This document shows positions 9,416 to 54,355 of a stretch of 56,599 nucleotides of DNA, one piece after another. The position numbers and the translations under genes are program-made. Location of the stretch: IMG/VR virus record IMGVR_UViG_3300033233_000046, positions 1-56,599 of that record; one strand, given 5' to 3'. The notes under the pieces were generated by a model, which searched no databases, had not been told where the DNA came from, and worked only from the letters and a program-made list of their open reading frames with translations. Every line of letters begins with the position of its first letter. Position 1 is the stretch's first letter. Source of the DNA: a virus. Its lineage: Duplodnaviria; Caudoviricetes.

Positions 9416-9937
9416 ATGGAGAAAGGTAGACACTCATATGGGACACCGATTATCAAGAGGTGGCATGACAGCGATGGAGATGTTACAATTGGTGCTTTCT
9501 GCTCGATAGGTGAGAACGTCCAGATATTTACAGGCGGCAATCACCGGACGGATTGGGTGTCTACCTTCCCATTTCCTGCTTTTTCTGAGTGGCCGGAAGT
9601 GCAGGGCAGAATTGATTATTGCCCGACAAAGGGAGATGTGGTGATCGGTAATGATGTATGGCTCGGTAACGATTGCCTTATACTCTCAGGGGTAACGATA
9701 GGCGATGGAGCAGTGATAGGCGCAAGGGCGGTAGTGGCGAAGGATGTTTCTCCCTACGGGATAGCCGTGGGGAATCCGGCAACGGTCAAACATTTGAGGT
9801 TTGCTTCTGAGGTGGTTGAGAAGCTGATGCGGATAAAGTGGTGGGAGTGGTCTGACGATAAGATACGGGAATATCTGCCGGACATTTTAAGCAGTGACGT
9901 AAGGGCTTTTATACGAAAGGTTGAGAATGCTTATTAA
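9416..9937 (+). CDS. CatB/Vat-family hexapeptide O-acetyltransferase
   Basis: IGAFCSIG, GGNHRTDWVSTFPF, IGNDVWLG, GVTIGDGAVIGA, WWEW. Confidence 0.92.
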   Translation: MEKGRHSYGTPIIKRWHDSDGDVTIGAFCSIGENVQIFTGGNHRTDWVSTFPFPAFSEWPEVQGRIDYCPTKGDVVIGNDVWLGNDCLILSGVTIGDGAVIGARAVVAKDVSPYGIAVGNPATVKHLRFASEVVEKLMRIKWWEWSDDKIREYLPDILSSDVRAFIRKVENAY

Positions 9938-11339
9938 CGAAAAGAAAGTAATGATAGCGACTCCCGCATATGAGATGAAAATGTTTTCTGCGTATTTGGA
10001 TACTCTCCTTACTTCTTTGAAGCTTCTCGACGGGATAGGGGTAAAGTATGTAACGTATTTCCTTCCTGGAGATTCTTATGTCCATAGGGCAAGGAATACT
10101 ATTGTCTCAGACTTTTACAAAAGTGACTGCACTGATCTTGTATTTATTGATTCAGATTTGACATGGCGGCCCAAAGACCTTGTAATGCTCATTGCCAATG
10201 ACGCTGAGGTCGTTGGCGGGGCTTATCCCTGCAAGAACCAATGGGACGATTGGGGAGTGAGAATATTTACCGACGAGAACGGGATTCCCGATGTAGACCC
10301 TCAAACGGGTCTAATCCGCGCTCAAATGGTTCCTACGGGCTTTATGAAGATAACCAGAAGGGCAATAGACAGAATGATTGAAACATATCCCGACCTCTGG
10401 TATTGGGCGAAGGTAGAAGTCGGAGAGCCTAAAAAACAATTTGCTTTCTTTAACCATCTTCCGGTTGAGGAATCCCATATATTTACCGGAGAGGATGGGA
10501 GTTTTGTTCATAGGTACAATGCAGCAGGAGGCGACTTATGGCTTATGCCCGATGCTACATTTGAGCATTATGGAATTAAAGAATGGAGGGGGAATTACCA
10601 TGAGTACCTTTTAGCTTGTCCGGGAGGTTCAAAAAGTCCTGAATCTGATAACCCGTTAGTCAGTGTAGTGATTGTTAGCTATGGGAATTATGAGTTCATA
10701 GGGGAGTGCATTAAGAGTGTATTGAATCAGACTTACAGAAACATTGAAATTATAGTTATGGACAATAATGAGGATGAAAGAATTCAACAGGCAATAGAGC
10801 ATTTTCCTGTCAGAATAATAAAGACAGCCAATGAGGGTGTTTCGGCAGCGAGGAATAAAGGAATAGCAACGGCAAGTGGGATATGGATATGTTGTCTGGA
10901 CGGTGACGATAAGATACATCCGTCATATATAAAAAGCTGTATTCAGAATAGTAAGGGATTTGATATTGTTAGTTCATGGATGCAACAGTTCGGGGGTGGG
11001 GATAAAGTATTTTCAACCGCAATCAATCCGGAGCATAAGGATTTTCTTACAGCGAATAGAATTCATTGCGCCTCTCTTTTCAAGAAAGAAGTCTGGTCTA
11101 GTATTGGTGGATATGATGAAGGATTGGGGGGAGTCCCATATACGGGATATGAAGACTACGATCTATGGTTAAGGGCTACCGACGATGGTTATAGGGTCAA
11201 TGTAGTGCAACAGGCCCTTTTCTATTGGAGAAAGCATGATGGACAAATAACTTCGATTATGAACCATGAGGAGATGTGCAGAAAGGTTTTGACTAAGAAT
11301 GGAGTGAAACAGGAGACACAATGCGCTTTAGTGAATTAA
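9927..11339 (+). CDS. Two-domain GT-A glycosyltransferase (phage-type GT + GT2)
   Basis: Domain 1: VMIATPAY, RARN, FIDSD, GED. Domain 2: VSVVIVSY, QTYRNIEII, SAARNKG, LDGDD, EDYDLWLR. Confidence 0.9.
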   Translation: MLINEKKVMIATPAYEMKMFSAYLDTLLTSLKLLDGIGVKYVTYFLPGDSYVHRARNTIVSDFYKSDCTDLVFIDSDLTWRPKDLVMLIANDAEVVGGAYPCKNQWDDWGVRIFTDENGIPDVDPQTGLIRAQMVPTGFMKITRRAIDRMIETYPDLWYWAKVEVGEPKKQFAFFNHLPVEESHIFTGEDGSFVHRYNAAGGDLWLMPDATFEHYGIKEWRGNYHEYLLACPGGSKSPESDNPLVSVVIVSYGNYEFIGECIKSVLNQTYRNIEIIVMDNNEDERIQQAIEHFPVRIIKTANEGVSAARNKGIATASGIWICCLDGDDKIHPSYIKSCIQNSKGFDIVSSWMQQFGGGDKVFSTAINPEHKDFLTANRIHCASLFKKEVWSSIGGYDEGLGGVPYTGYEDYDLWLRATDDGYRVNVVQQALFYWRKHDGQITSIMNHEEMCRKVLTKNGVKQETQCALVN

Positions 11340-42414: not shown

Positions 42415-42627
42415 TAGGTCCGAGGATGCCGCTTGGGGCAAAGCGGAGGAATATAGTTGTGATTTATGCTCGTGCATTATGGGAGCCTGGGAGTATTTCA
42501 CAGGCAATGGAACCTGTGTGATATGTCGGAGGGAGGATTATGAAACATAAAAGAATCAAAACAAGGATTGCATGGCCTGCTAATACTCATATTGATCTCG
42601 GAGGATGGCTCGCAAAAAGGAGGCGTG

Positions 42628-42828
42628 ATGAAGACAACCTTTAAAATGATTCTCATCCTCATCTTACTTACCGCCCTTTATGGCTGGTGGGTAGAGTTGA
42701 ACAGGCCGGAACATATCGTAACCGAGGACGCAGAGCATATCATCATTAGACATCAACCTCATTACTCCTATGCGCCCGTTGTGGTGGCAGGGGCAGGGGA
42801 TCAGGGCATGAGGAAGGTGGGGGAGTGA
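42628..42828 (+). CDS. Small membrane protein
   Basis: AGGAGG RBS; N-terminal TM. Confidence 0.5.
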   Translation: MKTTFKMILILILLTALYGWWVELNRPEHIVTEDAEHIIIRHQPHYSYAPVVVAGAGDQGMRKVGE

Positions 42829-42965
42829 CGCTGGAACTTTTCGCTGCGATAATCCTTGCGGTTCTTATCGCCCTATGCAGCAGGGGGCTCTAGTGGAGAA
42901 GTGTACTCTTATAGTCCCGTCCAACGCATGGGGTTCAAGAACTGTGAAGGGTGTGAGGGAAAGAA

Positions 42966-43800
42966 ATGAAATATAGGGACTTTATACAGTCAAAACAGAT
43001 TGTTGATAACCCCTGCGGTATATCTGTGAATGGTGATCTTAACCCGATGCTCTTTGGATTCCAGCACGATATTGTCAGGTGGGCGGTTAAGCGTGGACGC
43101 GCTGCAATATGGGCGGATTGTGGCCTAGGCAAAACTCCAATGCAGTTAGAGTGGGCGCGTCATATCCCCGGTGATGTCCTTATCCTTGCCCCCCTTGCGG
43201 TATCTCAACAAACAATCAGAGAGGGGGACAAATTCGGTATTGAGGTAAATTACTCTCGCCATCAGGAACAAGTGCAGTCCGGCATAACTATCACCAATTA
43301 TGAAATGCTCCACAACTTTGATGCACAAGCAACTCTGTAAAGATTCTGCTATCTGCCGTTCTGGATTGCCTGATTATCTTATCACTATGAGAAAGCCAGG
43401 GGAGAACATGGAACCTATATCTCACCCCAATGGTCTTGAGGAGTTTCATGGAGACAACTCACCCACTAAAGGAGTGCTCTCACACGAACGGTGGAGGCGG
43501 TATGCCTCACCCGTATGGATGGATATTAATCAGACTGACACACTCCAATATTCATCGGCAAGAGAAGAAAAGGACGAAAGGCACATATGTCCGTTGCAAC
43601 TCGATACCATCCGGCGTGGGTTGCACCTTTGGACAAATCCCGGCGATCTTGTCCTCTCACCTTTCGCAGGTATCGGATCAGAAGGCTATGTTGCCTTAGA
43701 AATGGGGAGGCAATTCATCGGTATGGAGTTGAAGGAATCCTACTTCAAGCAGGCCGTAAACAATCTGAGGAACATTAAGAAACAGGGAATACTCATATGA
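42966..43800 (+). pseudogene. SNF2-like helicase / DNA methyltransferase locus with large internal deletion
   Basis: Helicase start (ADCGLGKT, LILAPLAV, ITNYE) stops before the DExx box and abuts, out of frame at ~43322, an MTase C-half (HICPLQLD, SPFAGIGSEG) with no catalytic xPPY/F motif. Confidence 0.8.
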
Positions 43801-43895
43801 CGCACGGCGACATCACAGCCTTGTATGAAATCAAGAGGGTAATCCGTCTGACGGTAACACGGCCTTTGAGCCTGTTATTCTTACCAACGAGGAGA

Positions 43896-43908
43896 TAACA
43901 CTTTGATT
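43896..43908 (-). promoter_or_regulatory. IHF binding site
   Basis: Minus strand AATCAAAGTGTTA matches WATCAANNNNTTR exactly. Confidence 0.6.
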
Positions 43909-43928
43909 TTTAAGGCATTACAGAAAGC

Positions 43929-43965
43929 TCCAGAGTCTGCCGTCCTGCCATTGGACGACTCCCCA
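43929..43965 (-). tRNA. 5' half of tRNA-Gln(CUG), probable attP core; not a full tRNA
   Basis: Minus strand TGGGGAG-TC-GTCC-AATGGCA-GGAC-G-GCAGA-CTCTGGA: acceptor 5' strand, D arm, anticodon loop with CTG; no T arm or 3' acceptor strand follows. Confidence 0.85.
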
Positions 43966-44000
43966 AAATTCAATGATTTTCGCTGCTTGAAGCAGTTCCC

Positions 44001-44030
44001 ATTATACCCCAAACTCTCAAAAACTGTCAA
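44001..44030 (-). promoter_or_regulatory. Consensus sigma70 promoter facing the tRNA half
   Basis: Minus strand TTGACA (44030-44025), 18 nt, TATAAT (44006-44001). Confidence 0.8.
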
Positions 44031-44035
44031 AATTC

Positions 44036-44065
44036 ACCAAAAACCTTACCAAAAACCTTACCAAA
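44036..44065. repeat. 12-bp tandem repeat, possible integrase arm-type sites
   Basis: ACCAAAAACCTT x2.5; CTTACCAA recurs at 43880-43887 across the tRNA half. Confidence 0.6.
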
Positions 44066-44253
44066 TTTTCGTGGGTGGTGATGACGGGGTCGGGTCGTAA
44101 CGGACAGCCGAGGATCAGGGACGAGGTGATGAAGATAAGGGAGTTGTGGCGTCGGCACGAGGGCGGAGAGATCAGCAGAGAGGAAATGGAGGAGGAACTG
44201 AGGAAGCTGAGACGTCCGCCGTTGTTTTCTAAATTTGAAGACGAGGAAAGGAG

Positions 44254-44535
44254 GTGATGAGAATGCATTACAAGGACGGGACCGTAGCGCAGATCGGTGA
44301 TTTAGCGAAGGGCACAACTTACAATCGCCAGGGCGAACGTGTTGGCACTATCGTCTCGATAACGCCGGGGTCAGATTTGTGCAATTGCAAGCTGGCGAAC
44401 ATTATCGAGGTTAAGCCCGAAGAGGCTTGTGAGCACGAACACTTATTTATGATTGTTCAACCCGATGGGAGCCGACGACTCTTCAAGGTGGACGTCGATT
44501 ACACGGAAGTGAAGGCGCTGGAAAAGGTCGCCTGA
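44254..44535 (+). CDS. Hypothetical protein
   Basis: AGGAGG RBS; operonic. Confidence 0.6.
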   Translation: MMRMHYKDGTVAQIGDLAKGTTYNRQGERVGTIVSITPGSDLCNCKLANIIEVKPEEACEHEHLFMIVQPDGSRRLFKVDVDYTEVKALEKVA

Positions 44536-44544
44536 GGAGGAAGA

Positions 44545-44793
44545 ATGCCGTTAACGATTTTGATAAACAATATGCCTTACGAGGTCCCGAAGCCCGCGAT
44601 GACCGGCGAGGAGATCAAAGAGCTTGCCGGTGGGCCGATGGATTACTGGCTGGTGCTTAGGAAAGGTTCCCCTGATCCCGTAGCCGGCGAAGATAATGTA
44701 CGCATTGAGGATGAAGAAGCCGTGGACATGCAGTCCGGAATGCAGTTCAGGATTATTAATGCCGCGACTTTCGGGGCATTGCAGGCAGCCTGA
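44545..44793 (+). CDS. Multi-ubiquitin-domain (beta-grasp Ubl) protein
   Basis: ILINNMPYEV...MTGEEIKELAG...YWL...IEDEEAVDMQSGMQF...ATFG pattern; GAGGAGG RBS. Confidence 0.72.
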   Translation: MPLTILINNMPYEVPKPAMTGEEIKELAGGPMDYWLVLRKGSPDPVAGEDNVRIEDEEAVDMQSGMQFRIINAATFGALQAA

Positions 44794-44938
44794 AGGCTGG
44801 GCCGGGGATGGCACGGGAGGATGGACAGGGAGAAAACTTCTCCCGGCGTAATAAGGTCCTTGTCTAACCCGGCCCTTTTCAAAAGGAGGGGCAGTGAAGG
44901 AGGTTCTGGAACTTGAACCATTTTAGGAGGAATAAATC

Positions 44939-45391
44939 ATGAAATCCTATAACTTCATCATCCTGGGCAATCCTCTTGCACAGGGGCGCCCTCGGTTCTT
45001 TGTCCGTCAGGGAAAGAGCGGTGGTAAGTTTGTCGGTGCCTACGATCCGGCGACATCGAAGAGTTGGAAGGAAACAATCAAGTGGCAGGTAATAGAACAG
45101 AAACCGGAAATAATCAGCGGTCCTGTCGCCATGACTCTCCATTTCATGCTTCCGAGACCGAAAGGGCATTTTAGAACAGGAAAAAACGATAAGGTATTGA
45201 AACCCTCAGCACCGAAATATCACATCGTTAAGCCCGATATTGATAATCTCGAAAAAGCCGTGAAAGATGCACTAAGGAGCATTTGTTATAGAGATGACTG
45301 TCAGATAATTTCTACAACCGTCACGAAAGAATACGGCAATCACACAACGGGCGTGAACATCGAACTCACGGAGGTTATTAGTGGCACTTAA
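44939..45391 (+). CDS. rusA: RusA-family Holliday junction resolvase
   Basis: GNPLAQGRPRF, KPDIDNLEKAVKDAL, YRDDCQI. Confidence 0.92.
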   Translation: MKSYNFIILGNPLAQGRPRFFVRQGKSGGKFVGAYDPATSKSWKETIKWQVIEQKPEIISGPVAMTLHFMLPRPKGHFRTGKNDKVLKPSAPKYHIVKPDIDNLEKAVKDALRSICYRDDCQIISTTVTKEYGNHTTGVNIELTEVISGT

Positions 45392-46064
45392 TCTTCAGTC
45401 CGGCAATATGTACGATTTCATCACGCACACATGGAATCCCATTAAGGGGAAATGCTCACATACCTGTTCTTATTGCTACATGCACCAAGAGAGATTGAAA
45501 GCACTCCGCCTTGACGAGAAGGACTTACAGACCGATCTCGGAGAAAGCAATGTTATTTTCGTCGGCTCCTCGACGGATATGTGGGCGAAAGATGTACCGG
45601 AGGAGTGGATTCGGGCGGTCATCGAGAGATGTGACCCCGCCGATAATAGATTTCTTTTTCAGTCTAAGAATCCCCGGCGGTTACTTTCTATGCCGAACAA
45701 TGCCAATTTTATCTTCGGCACAACGATCGAGACGAATAGAGATTATAAAATTTCTCAGGCTCCGATAGCATTGCTTAGGGCTGGAACAATGAAAGCCCTG
45801 CGGGAAAGCGGTTCAGAAGTCATGGTCACTATCGAACCCATCATGGACTTTGACCTCGTTGCATTTTCAATGCTTATAGAGGACATTAGACCCTCATGGG
45901 TGAACATCGGGGCCGATAGTAAGGGTCACAAGCTCCCTGAACCCTCATGGGAGAAAGTGCAGAATTTGATAAAGATTTTGAAGACGTTCACGGGAGTAAG
46001 AGAGAAGAAGAACATCGGAAGGCTGAAGCGGGGAGTTATTAACCATCAAACGGAGGGAGTATGA
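45381..46064 (+). CDS. DUF5131 (Gp37/Gp68, radical-SAM-like) protein
   Basis: TWNPIKGKCSHTCSYCY, IFVGSSTD, SKNP, GTTIETN, TIEPI. Confidence 0.85.
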   Translation: MALNLQSGNMYDFITHTWNPIKGKCSHTCSYCYMHQERLKALRLDEKDLQTDLGESNVIFVGSSTDMWAKDVPEEWIRAVIERCDPADNRFLFQSKNPRRLLSMPNNANFIFGTTIETNRDYKISQAPIALLRAGTMKALRESGSEVMVTIEPIMDFDLVAFSMLIEDIRPSWVNIGADSKGHKLPEPSWEKVQNLIKILKTFTGVREKKNIGRLKRGVINHQTEGV

Positions 46065-46388: not shown

Positions 46389-47882
46389 ATGAACAAGATT
46401 GAAAAGAAAGACACCAACAGGATTTATCAGGGCAATATCACTATCAGGAATGCCGAGGTGTGGCATGCGTTTATAAAAAAATACGATGCAATTACGGGCT
46501 ACATCGACATGCGGGGCTGCACAGGACTCACCTCTATCACATTCCCAGATAAGGTGATGGGCTCCATCGACATGCAGGGCTGCACAGGACTCACCTCTGT
46601 CACATTCCCGGATAAGGTGATGGGCTCCATCGACATGCAGGGCTGCACAGGACTCACCTCTATCACATTCCCAGATAAGGTGACGGGCTCCATCTACATG
46701 CATGGCTGCACAGGACTCACCTCTATCACATTCCCGGATAAGGTGATGGGCTCCATCGACATGCAGGGCTGCACAGGACTCACCTCTGTCACATTCCCAG
46801 ATAAGGTGACGGGCTCCATCGACATGCAGGGCTGCACAGGACTCACCTCTATCACATTCCCAGATAAGGTGACGGGCTCCATCTACATGCAGGGCTGCAC
46901 AGGACTCACCTCTATCACATTCCCGGATAAGGTGACGGACTACATCGAGATGCAGGGCTGCACAGGACTCACCTCTATCACATTCCCAGATAAGGTGACG
47001 GGCTCCATCTACATGCATGGCTGCACAGGACTCACCTCTATCACATTCCCAGATAAGGTGATGAGCTACATCGAGATGCAGGGCTGCACAGGACTCACCT
47101 CTGTCACATTCCCAGATAAGGTGATGGGCTACATCTACATGCAGGGCTGCACAGGACTCACCTCTATCACATTCCCAGATAAGGTGACGGGCTACATCGA
47201 GATGCAGGGCTGCACAGGACTCACCTCTGTCACATTCCCAGATAAGGTGATGGGCTACATCGACATGCGGGGCTGCACAGGACTCACCTCTATCACATTC
47301 CCGGATAAGGTGATGGGCTCCATCTACATGCAGGGCTGCACAGGACTCACCTCTATCACATTCCCAGATAAGGTGATGAGCTACATCTACATGCAGGGCT
47401 GCACAGGACTCACCTCTGTCACATTCCCAGATAAGGTGACGGGCTACATCTACATGGACGACCGGTGCTCAGAAGCTTTACTCTCCATGCAACACAAAAG
47501 GATCATATACCGCATTAGCGCAGTGCAGTTCAACAGGGATCTCTTCGATAAAGTACGTCACGATGACCTCTCTGCCCAGGAAGTCTTCTCGATCACCAAT
47601 ATGGAACAGCGCCGAATCGCCTATGAGCGCATGGACAAGATCAAGATGAAAGACATGCCTGGCTTTAAGACGCTCCACGAGGTTGCCGATGATGGGCGCG
47701 GTTATCCAATGAAGGTTGTGAGCTTCACAGTGGAGGGCTACAACGAACCATTCAAGTTCCTGAACTGTTTTTGTCCGTCAACGGGGAGGGAATACTTTTT
47801 GGAGACAAAACAGGATACGTGTGAGGTTGCGAAGGCGAAGAGTTTTGGTTTCGACAGACTGACGTTCGATGAGGAGTATTAA
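46389..47882 (+). CDS. Leucine-rich-repeat protein with DUF6745-like C-terminus
   Basis: 15 x 21-aa xxxIxMxGCTGLTS(I/V)TFPDKV; C-terminal NMEQRRIA and CPSTGREYFL. Confidence 0.85.
   Translation: MNKIEKKDTNRIYQGNITIRNAEVWHAFIKKYDAITGYIDMRGCTGLTSITFPDKVMGSIDMQGCTGLTSVTFPDKVMGSIDMQGCTGLTSITFPDKVTGSIYMHGCTGLTSITFPDKVMGSIDMQGCTGLTSVTFPDKVTGSIDMQGCTGLTSITFPDKVTGSIYMQGCTGLTSITFPDKVTDYIEMQGCTGLTSITFPDKVTGSIYMHGCTGLTSITFPDKVMSYIEMQGCTGLTSVTFPDKVMGYIYMQGCTGLTSITFPDKVTGYIEMQGCTGLTSVTFPDKVMGYIDMRGCTGLTSITFPDKVMGSIYMQGCTGLTSITFPDKVMSYIYMQGCTGLTSVTFPDKVTGYIYMDDRCSEALLSMQHKRIIYRISAVQFNRDLFDKVRHDDLSAQEVFSITNMEQRRIAYERMDKIKMKDMPGFKTLHEVADDGRGYPMKVVSFTVEGYNEPFKFLNCFCPSTGREYFLETKQDTCEVAKAKSFGFDRLTFDEEY
46494..47456 (+). 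repeat. 15.3 x 63-bp coding tandem array
   Basis: Units read directly; 10 of 63 positions vary. Confidence 0.97.
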
Positions 47883-47884
47883 CC

Positions 47885-48148
47885 ATGACAAAGAAAGAAT
47901 TGGCAAGAGCAGCGGCAATGATAGCCGGCGTGACCCAGGCGAAGGCAGAAGAGATCGAAGAGGCAATCTTCGATGGCATAACAGACTCTCTCAGGCGCGG
48001 TGAGAAGGTCGAGATCAGAGGCTTCGGGACCTTCAAAGTGAAGAACAGTCCCGCCAGGATGGGCAGGAACCCGAAGACGGGGGCAGAGGTACAGATCCCG
48101 GCGCGGAAGAAAGTCGTCTTTAAGGCGTCGAAAGAGATGGGGGTATAG
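47885..48148 (+). CDS. HU/IHF-family DNA-binding protein
   Basis: MTKKEL, GEKVEIRGFGTF, RMGRNPKTG, IPARKKVVFKAS. Confidence 0.95.
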   Translation: MTKKELARAAAMIAGVTQAKAEEIEEAIFDGITDSLRRGEKVEIRGFGTFKVKNSPARMGRNPKTGAEVQIPARKKVVFKASKEMGV

Positions 48149-53747: not shown

Positions 53748-53882
53748 GCACATTCAAACGGATTTGGATTGAGTACGAGGACGAGAAGGGAGATATTTAT
53801 CTGGTTCCGGCATCGAATGAAGAAGTAAAAACAATTCTTTATGAACTTACTGATATTCTGTCATTGCAAAAAAGGTAGGGGC

Positions 53883-54086
53883 ATGAGCAAATATACTTTC
53901 TTGATTTTAGGTGATCCCATAGCACAGGGCAGACCTCGTTTTACACGGTCTGGACATACGTATAATCCTAAGCGGTCTAAGGACTGGAAGAACGAGATTA
54001 AACGCCAGATGTTAAGGAAAAAGCCAAAAGTGCTTTTAGGCTCCCTATTTATGGTGCTTCAATTCGCGCTGAGAAGGCCTAAGAGC
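53883..54086 (+). pseudogene. Second RusA-like gene truncated at IS junction
   Basis: GDPIAQGRPRF...RRPKS then IS sequence; catalytic KPDxDN region absent. Confidence 0.75.
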
Positions 54087-54355
54087 GTTGGTAGGCAACG
54101 ACAACTGTGTTAGGTTTGATGGCCTAATCCTTCAAATCCCCCCCGATCGGTATCGATATCACTACGTCAGGGTAAAGGTCCGGGTCCATCGGTATCCTGA
54201 TGGTCGTCTCTCGCTGTTTCATGGCCCCCGAAAACTGGCAACTTACGATACCAAAGAGAAGGAGATTTTGGCTCGTGCACAGATTGCCGCGTAACGTTAA
54301 CAGGGGGAGCCTTGTTTCATGCGCTCCCCCACTACAGACCGGACAATTAATTTGC
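54087..54355 (+). mobile_element. ISNCY transposase C-terminal fragment and partial right end
   Basis: VGNDNCVRFDGLILQIPPDRYRYHYVRVKVRVHRYPDG; hairpin 54303-54330; ACCGGACAATTAATTTGC subterminal-repeat-like sequence. Confidence 0.8.

Follow-up and report, generated by a model that had tools for sequence, protein, structure and literature searches.

The attP sites of phages P22, P4 and HP1 are built around a block of identity to a host tRNA gene that is bounded by the anticodon loop, with a tyrosine integrase and with arm-type repeats and DNA-bending sites around the core. In these phages the block is the 3' part of the tRNA gene, and the host promoter is relied upon. Attachment sites without a recombinase of their own are found in cis-mobilisable integrase-less elements, which are small and chromosomal and whose sites are usable only in trans.

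The Islander survey, in the counts that its published description gives, holds 3760 islands with a 3' tDNA fragment, 159 with a 5' fragment (about 4% of Islander islands) and 2083 with anticodon-centred sites (PMC4383910). The original prediction for this locus started from the premise that tRNA-targeting elements usually carry the 3' part and that crossover in the anticodon loop is a recognised class. A parallel outside tRNA genes is offered by the dusA-specific islands, which put sequence of their own in place of the 5' end of the target; once they have integrated, putative -10/-35 elements can be seen (PMC4482086). There, in contrast to the present case, the target is protein-coding, the integrase belongs to another family and the integrase is present. 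A Klebsiella preprint, as far as its account of upstream integration goes, describes such integration as rare and proposes that islands avoid polycistronic tRNA genes, whose downstream genes would lose their promoter (10.1101/2020.11.02.365908). Our literature search, a partial survey that does not establish absence, returned no paper on a promoter-bearing 5'-half attP in a tRNA gene.

The locus described here lies in the genome of an uncultured tailed phage, and the whole stretch of 56,599 nucleotides that was analysed is called the window below. Positions 44066-43880 of the window are probably an attP-type site, apparently orphaned, of the less common type in which the phage brings along the 5' portion of the tRNA gene that it targets. 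As in P22, P4 and HP1, the identity block is bounded by the anticodon loop, putative arm repeats and an IHF consensus flank it and a tyrosine integrase is involved, the latter in relatives, but the window carries the 5' part of the gene together with a promoter. Compared with the 5'-fragment islands that the Islander description covers (PMC4383910), in which the element's 5' part regenerates the gene and the host 5' fragment is pushed to the far end, the site belongs to the same rare but known class. In the present case the carried piece includes a copy of the promoter and leader of the host locus, a tRNA-Gln gene that heads a pair with tRNA-Glu is the target, the host phylum is a new one, the Nitrospirota, and no recognisable integrase adjoins the site. 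Like the cis-mobilisable elements it is an attachment site without its own recombinase, but it is part of a 56.6-kb podovirus-like phage genome, and its use in trans is hypothetical. All coordinates of the attachment site (promoter, leader, half-tRNA, repeats and IHF site) refer to the minus strand, and its features are the following.

44066-43880, minus strand: probable attP-type site overall, consisting of arms and a host-like centre
44043-44066, minus strand: P-arm, where a 12-nt repeat, TTTGGTAAGGTT, stands twice in tandem and may bind the integrase as an arm-type site
44001-44030, minus strand: TTGACA-18-TATAAT promoter of sigma-70 type, homologous to the one native to tRNA-Gln in the host
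43966-44000, minus strand: leader of 35 nt, its last 14 nt common to the related viral contig L027 and to host leaders
43929-43965, minus strand: half-tRNA-Gln(CUG), nt 1-37, with 37/37 identity to Nitrospirota tRNA-Gln genes
43880-43928, minus strand: P'-arm, non-tRNA sequence with an exact IHF consensus and a third TTGGTAAG

The arrangement of the centre can be read directly from the window and is the one originally described, that is, TTGACA-18-TATAAT followed by a 35-nt gap with a small hairpin and by the tRNA from nt 1 to the end of the anticodon loop. The hexamers lie at 44030-44025 (TTGACA) and 44006-44001 (TATAAT), separated by an 18-nt spacer, and with a score of 12/12 this promoter was the sole perfect match among the three promoter-like sites found in a scan of 42500-45500. 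The leader contains a 5-bp hairpin (CTGCT/AGCAG, 43995-43983). The half-tRNA runs from T1 (43965) to A37 (43929), the latter being the last base of the anticodon loop and position 38 in standard tRNA numbering, and it comprises the 5' strand of the acceptor stem, the D arm, the 5' strand of the anticodon stem and the full anticodon loop, CTCTGGA. This stretch is presumed to be the core and crossover region.

The half-tRNA does not form the complete cloverleaf of a functional tRNA gene. ARAGORN predicted no tRNA gene in the window, and Rfam returned no match at gathering score; in E-value mode the Rfam tRNA model scored 16.2 bits (E = 1.6), well below its cut-off of 29 bits. When a full host tRNA-Gln was used as query, the 3' half was absent from the window, with no other match longer than 13 nt. 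A perfect 5' half with its own promoter might suggest a tRNA-Gln gene that is split or contains an intron, with its 3' half at another place in the phage genome, but the lack of a 3' half in the assembled part and the negative results of ARAGORN and Rfam make this extremely unlikely.

The half-tRNA identifies the host, as the original prediction had anticipated. An exact copy of its 34-mer 43964-43931 was found in 25 loci on genome contigs, searched with one genome per species, and every locus was labelled Nitrospirota or one of its subgroups (Thermodesulfovibrionales, Nitrospiraceae, Sulfobium, Dissulfurispiraceae) with the exception of L010, labelled 'uncultured bacterium'. The 34-mer thus points to Nitrospirota tRNA-Gln genes: ARAGORN found tRNA-Gln(ctg) in 23 of the 25 loci, the other two being cut by contig ends, and an adjoining tRNA-Glu(ctc) in 22. 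Identity between window and host covers 37/37 positions and ends at the next base, which is G in the window and T in the host, so that it covers the gene from its first nucleotide up to the end of the anticodon loop, the boundary seen in attP sites of this type. The site assigns an otherwise unplaceable podovirus-like phage to Nitrospirota hosts (Thermodesulfovibrionales or Nitrospiraceae-type).

Similarity to the host is not confined to the tRNA. The segment 44038-43926 is 84-87% identical over 108-113 nt to the host loci L206 and L210, and the block is 78-79% identical over 105 nt to L002 and L012; upstream of the tRNA gene in L206 the same two hexamers, TTGACA-18-TATAAT, stand at the same spacing. 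The genes upstream of L210, L206, L013 and L012 encode NrdR, serine hydroxymethyltransferase (SHMT), phosphofructokinase (PFK), MTHFR, FxsA and BacA (PFK and MTHFR, and NrdR and SHMT, for L206 and L210), and the segment is single-copy in five such genomes. The housekeeping genes upstream and the single copy indicate that these are native, unoccupied tRNA-Gln (attB) loci, and because the promoter-inclusive block is 84-87% identical to them, the promoter is host-derived. The phage therefore carries a copy of about 110 bp of the host tRNA-Gln locus, comprising native promoter, leader and nt 1-37, and what had been taken for a phage promoter is copied from the one native to tRNA-Gln in the host. 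A 5'-fragment element has to carry a promoter with its 5' gene portion, and here promoter, leader and nt 1-37 are all homologous to native loci.

In some native Nitrospirota loci a different, distantly related integrase is encoded just past tRNA-Glu (L005 5642-6622, L210 4640-5713, L211 85-1110 and L002 239-382). The identity is 26-28%, and 46% over the short L002 piece, consistent with a second element whose target is the tRNA-Glu 3' end.

Including the window, eight phage-type contigs (the others are L027-L032 and L203) have a half-tRNA that is truncated at one and the same base. Two positions in the D loop are the only ones at which the copies vary, a pattern in keeping with selection for tRNA function, or with adaptation to different hosts. 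Seven of the eight encode a homologous tyrosine integrase 30-573 nt from the site, so that the integrase expected at this spot in relatives is indeed present at 7/7 other half-tRNA sites. The host assignment extends to these at least seven other uncultured phage contigs.

Contig L027 was the sole other viral contig with the half-tRNA in a search of viral contigs. It has 51 nt in common with the window, 98% identical and all at the site, and since the two genomes are alike only there, the site moves as a module. Its tyrosine integrase lies directly upstream of the site (PF00589, E = 1e-31), with a holin and an M15 peptidase on the opposite side. Metagenome contigs were scanned for half-tRNAs whose next base is not the host's T, which yielded six loci, five of which (L028-L032) encode homologues of the L027 integrase with 35-58% identity. 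All five genes point toward the half-tRNA and lie across it from the promoter; of the L028 integrase no more than the 30 C-terminal residues are visible, as the contig ends there. The same scan of genome contigs returned L203, in a Nitrospiraceae MAG, with an integrase 84-86% identical to those of L030 and L032, and L204, which was discarded as a 22-nt chance match. Where tested, the flanks are of phage type (SSB and HNH in L030, DUF5131 in L031 and L029, holin and M15 peptidase in L027), and phage-type genes on both sides argue that the related sites are attP sites and not host junctions. By eye, promoter-like hexamers precede each copy, with 18-nt spacing in L029 and L031 and with TGaTATAAT in L028, L030, L032 and L203.

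Between the integrase and the site of L027 lies an ORF of 92 codons (9750-10028, plus strand) that is similar, in its middle part, to the N-terminal end of the integrase family; it may be a remnant of a second, truncated integrase gene. On a high-GC metagenome contig (L033, 969-1008, plus strand) we saw a tRNA-like 5' half of another kind, whose anticodon arm is the same and which likewise has no 3' continuation; the contig showed no match to the L027 integrase and was set aside. Genome contigs contained no close relatives of the integrase family, the best match having 33% identity, and hence no close lysogens. In an integrase-family search of viral contigs, L116 had no half-tRNA behind its integrase and L115 ended 15 nt past the integrase.

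In relatives the module, which has its tyrosine integrase next to the site, recombines with the chromosomal tRNA-Gln gene at some point inside the 37-nt identity block, and this puts the phage-borne promoter and 5' half ahead of the host 3' half and tRNA-Glu. Strand exchange is probably in the anticodon loop, with the stem serving as core sites. The carried promoter would then drive both tRNA-Gln and the downstream tRNA-Glu, both of which would stay expressed, and the host's own promoter and 5' half would be displaced to the far end of the prophage. Such a promoter-bearing 5' solution would permit use of the first gene in a two-tRNA unit. If tRNA-Gln and tRNA-Glu are co-transcribed, a 3'-type insertion would sever tRNA-Glu from the tRNA-Gln promoter; a promoter-bearing attP would bypass this polycistronic-tRNA limit, which is a possible reason for the solution. 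The locus may serve as a worked example of the rare 5' class, illustrating why the promoter must travel with the 5' half.

Integrated forms were sought by scanning for intact tRNA-Gln genes with the D-loop variants of L028 and L030, which gave 24 Nitrospirota loci. In four of them (L227, L211, L224 and L214) a stretch of 1.6-2.5 kb matches the flank on the promoter side of L028, L030 or L203 at 76-80% identity and is followed by a phage-type leader, an intact tRNA-Gln and tRNA-Glu, as in an attR-type junction; L216 and L207 show such a junction in part only, and one MAG contains both a native-type locus (L221) and a junction (L224). For the relatives these four junctions are those predicted if the phage promoter and 5' half recombine with the host gene. 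An attL carrying host promoter, half-tRNA and integrase was not found for any relative, nor did the five junction MAGs (L227, L211, L224, L214 and L216) contain an integrase above 38% identity to the L030 type.

The original prediction that integration rebuilds the host tRNA-Gln accordingly holds for relatives, in which attR-type junctions occur naturally, but not as worded for the window phage, for which no junction was seen and whose promoter is of host type. None of the 49 host loci carries flank sequence of the window phage, so neither its attL nor its attR was recovered, and Logan contigs break inside the common tRNA stretch. The core of the prediction, an attP with a promoter and the 5' half of tRNA-Gln(CUG), crossover in the anticodon loop and no adjoining integrase, is upheld by the seven integrase-linked relatives and by the junctions.

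Homology to the host ends at about 44038, and the TTTGGTAAGGTT repeats, which are phage-specific, lie just outside the host-homologous block. The P-arm has copies of TTGGTAAG at 44064-44057 and 44052-44045, and the third copy, at 43887-43880 in the P'-arm, is oriented like both of them; relative to the tRNA block the offsets are -99, -87 and +42. TTGGTAAG is the reverse complement of CTTACCAA, the form in which the repeats had first been noticed, and they do flank both sides, twice in the P-arm and once in the P'-arm. Across the window TTGGTAAG is not enriched, with 4 copies against 2.0 expected and 13/100 shuffles reaching 4, and three of the four copies sit at the attachment site, all on the minus strand. 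The integrase-bearing L029 has a repeat of its own, ATTGATAC, at -89 and +40, which parallels the geometry in the window. We regard the TTGGTAAG repeats as putative arm-type integrase sites.

The exact IHF consensus that had been reported is present at 43908-43896, but the window has 3 matches against 3.6 expected, a count not above chance. The P'-arm shows weak similarity to the same arm of L030, with 14/2000 shuffles (0.007) reaching the score, uncorrected for 7 comparisons. A vestigial 3' half of the tRNA in the P'-arm was considered and rejected, as similarity to the host 3' half is insignificant (a score equalled by 0.93 of shuffles). The P'-arm also has stretches complementary to the acceptor and anticodon stems, which turn up jointly in about 1% of shuffles; they were picked out post hoc, are not conserved at other sites and were likewise set aside.

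The genes around the site, and those further along that bear on the type of phage, are listed here.

42966-43340, plus strand: ORF upstream of the methyltransferase and overlapping it, no Pfam match
43300-43800, plus strand: N6/N4 DNA methyltransferase, C-terminal part (PF01555, E = 4.2e-14, profile positions 134-220 of 221)
43797-43898, plus strand: 33-codon ORF that overlaps the methyltransferase stop codon and extends into the P'-arm
44075-44257, plus strand: 60-aa ORF without family assignment, the first on the flank opposite the methyltransferase
44545-44793, plus strand: small Multi_ubiq (Multiubiquitin domain) ORF between the site and RusA (PF14452, E = 1.7e-8)
44939-45391, plus strand: RusA, full length (E = 2e-25)
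45381-46064, plus strand: DUF5131, family match
46389-47882, plus strand: 497-aa LRR protein in a non-structural region, with seven BspA-type repeat stretches (PF13306, E = 2.4e-55)
47885-48148, plus strand: HU/IHF-family DNA-bending protein (PF00216, E = 2e-30), 4 kb from the site
53841-54113, plus strand: second RusA-family ORF, first half of the profile only (E = 1.9e-7)

The ORFs in 44075-46064 are phage genes antisense to the promoter. A portal of the SU10 type and a coat protein of the P22 type make the phage podovirus-like, and the window further encodes a GH108 lysin and a Prim-Pol/DnaB-like protein. The HU/IHF-family protein is a possible accessory factor for recombination, or could have a role in replication or packaging. 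The ORFs 42966-43340 and 43300-43800 may represent a frameshifted or split methyltransferase gene beside the site. Among 80 loci with DUF5131 homologues, identity did not exceed 57% and none had the half-tRNA. Relatives for a synteny comparison were also sought with two other proteins; the one of 391 aa led to two loci and the one of 485 aa to none, and no informative synteny resulted.

The methyltransferase occupies the side where six of the seven related sites have their integrase. Six-frame searches of the window with PF00589, PF00239 and PF00665 (E <= 1) gave no match to a tyrosine or serine recombinase or to a DDE transposase, tblastn with five related integrases had a best E of 0.94, PHROGs returned nothing integrase-like, and the alignment of three unannotated ORFs of 332-391 aa to the integrase family with hhalign gave less than 1% probability. 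A local integrase remnant was proposed by one match (E = 0.08 in a 1-kb search space) and rejected, as it falls on the C-terminus of the methyltransferase and looks to us like an ordinary methyltransferase ending. The statement that no integrase stands at the site therefore extends, by profile, tblastn, PHROGs and hhalign searches, to all 56.6 kb, and it is this absence that makes the site an orphan.

The record is linear, 56.6 kb long and about 72% complete according to CheckV; a cognate integrase adjoins 7/7 related sites and is absent from the window at this completeness. As the genome is incomplete, an integrase that was lost and one that was not assembled look the same: the gene may lie in the unassembled part or may have been lost recently, or an integrase would have to act in trans.

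The same absence could mean that the site is a dead relic or captured host DNA, some 110 bp left by aberrant excision or by recombination at a prophage junction and now a passenger. A methyltransferase in the place where 6/7 relatives have the integrase, the failure to find an integrated form of the window phage and the mosaicism of the phage genomes, with L027 and the window alike only at the site, would all agree with this. The missing integrase fits a dead site as well as it fits incomplete assembly, and a very recent loss of the integrase is compatible with it too. We nevertheless consider a relic unlikely, as the site shows no decay, with 37/37 identity in the tRNA, 12/12 in the promoter and arm-like repeats at the offsets of an integrase-bearing site. 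Its end point in the anticodon loop is moreover the same as in seven integrase-linked sites, which indicates derivation from an attP module and not random capture.

The undecayed state could also be explained if the phage truly lacks an integrase and keeps its attP for use in trans by the integrases of co-resident or co-infecting Nitrospirota phages that target the same tRNA-Gln (att-site piracy on the part of a full-sized phage), and/or if the strong promoter makes a 5' tRNA-Gln half with its own function in lytic growth; we hold this to be decidedly unlikely. If the site is really an orphan and is kept nonetheless, trans-acting integration from one phage to another would have a candidate here.

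The orientation of the promoter bears on the reading of the module as a co-opted RNA gene, in which the strong promoter of host type would yield a 5' tRNA-Gln half during infection, either to decoy anticodon nucleases or to regulate the methyltransferase operon in antisense. The perfect promoter aims into the half-tRNA and then antisense into 43300-43898, and within 42500-45500 there is no terminator-like site downstream on that strand. Integration, on the other hand, explains the same module in relatives, the half alone is not a tRNA according to ARAGORN and Rfam, and the downstream stem complements are post hoc, found in about 1% of shuffles and not conserved. Judged from sequence features, such a role would be quite improbable, and we prefer an attP-type site carrying the promoter and 5' half of its target.

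Continuity across the site was assessed in assembled contigs. None of the Logan contigs from the probable source run spans the site: one stops at 43958, and its neighbour begins at 43936. The pieces break in the common tRNA stretch and so cannot link the flanks, and many other contigs share 43929-43966. Host-type intact tRNA-Gln genes were seen among the Logan contigs of the same samples. The unbridged break, and the presence of 43929-43966 in many other contigs, would be expected of an assembly chimera in which two genomes were joined over a 37-41-nt stretch common to host tRNA genes and several phages. Logan pieces, however, break at any 31-mer repeat, so that a break is expected here anyway; the two pieces have similar depth (35.9 and 41), and phage genes lie on the same strand on both flanks. 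The flanks are correlated in tetranucleotide usage (r = 0.81), and among 15 comparison segments this is the top value that the right flank reaches, though this is weak evidence as other Nitrospirota-linked sequences reach 0.77. A chimera is in our view very improbable.

Contigs with other arrangements at the site were seen in two runs. In run X3, two contigs join other non-tRNA sequence at 43928. In run X2, a 151-nt contig of depth 2.1 joins 43809 to 43938 on opposite strands, which fits an inversion of 43809-43937; one of its ends lies in the anticodon stem of the half-tRNA, and it may be a chimera.
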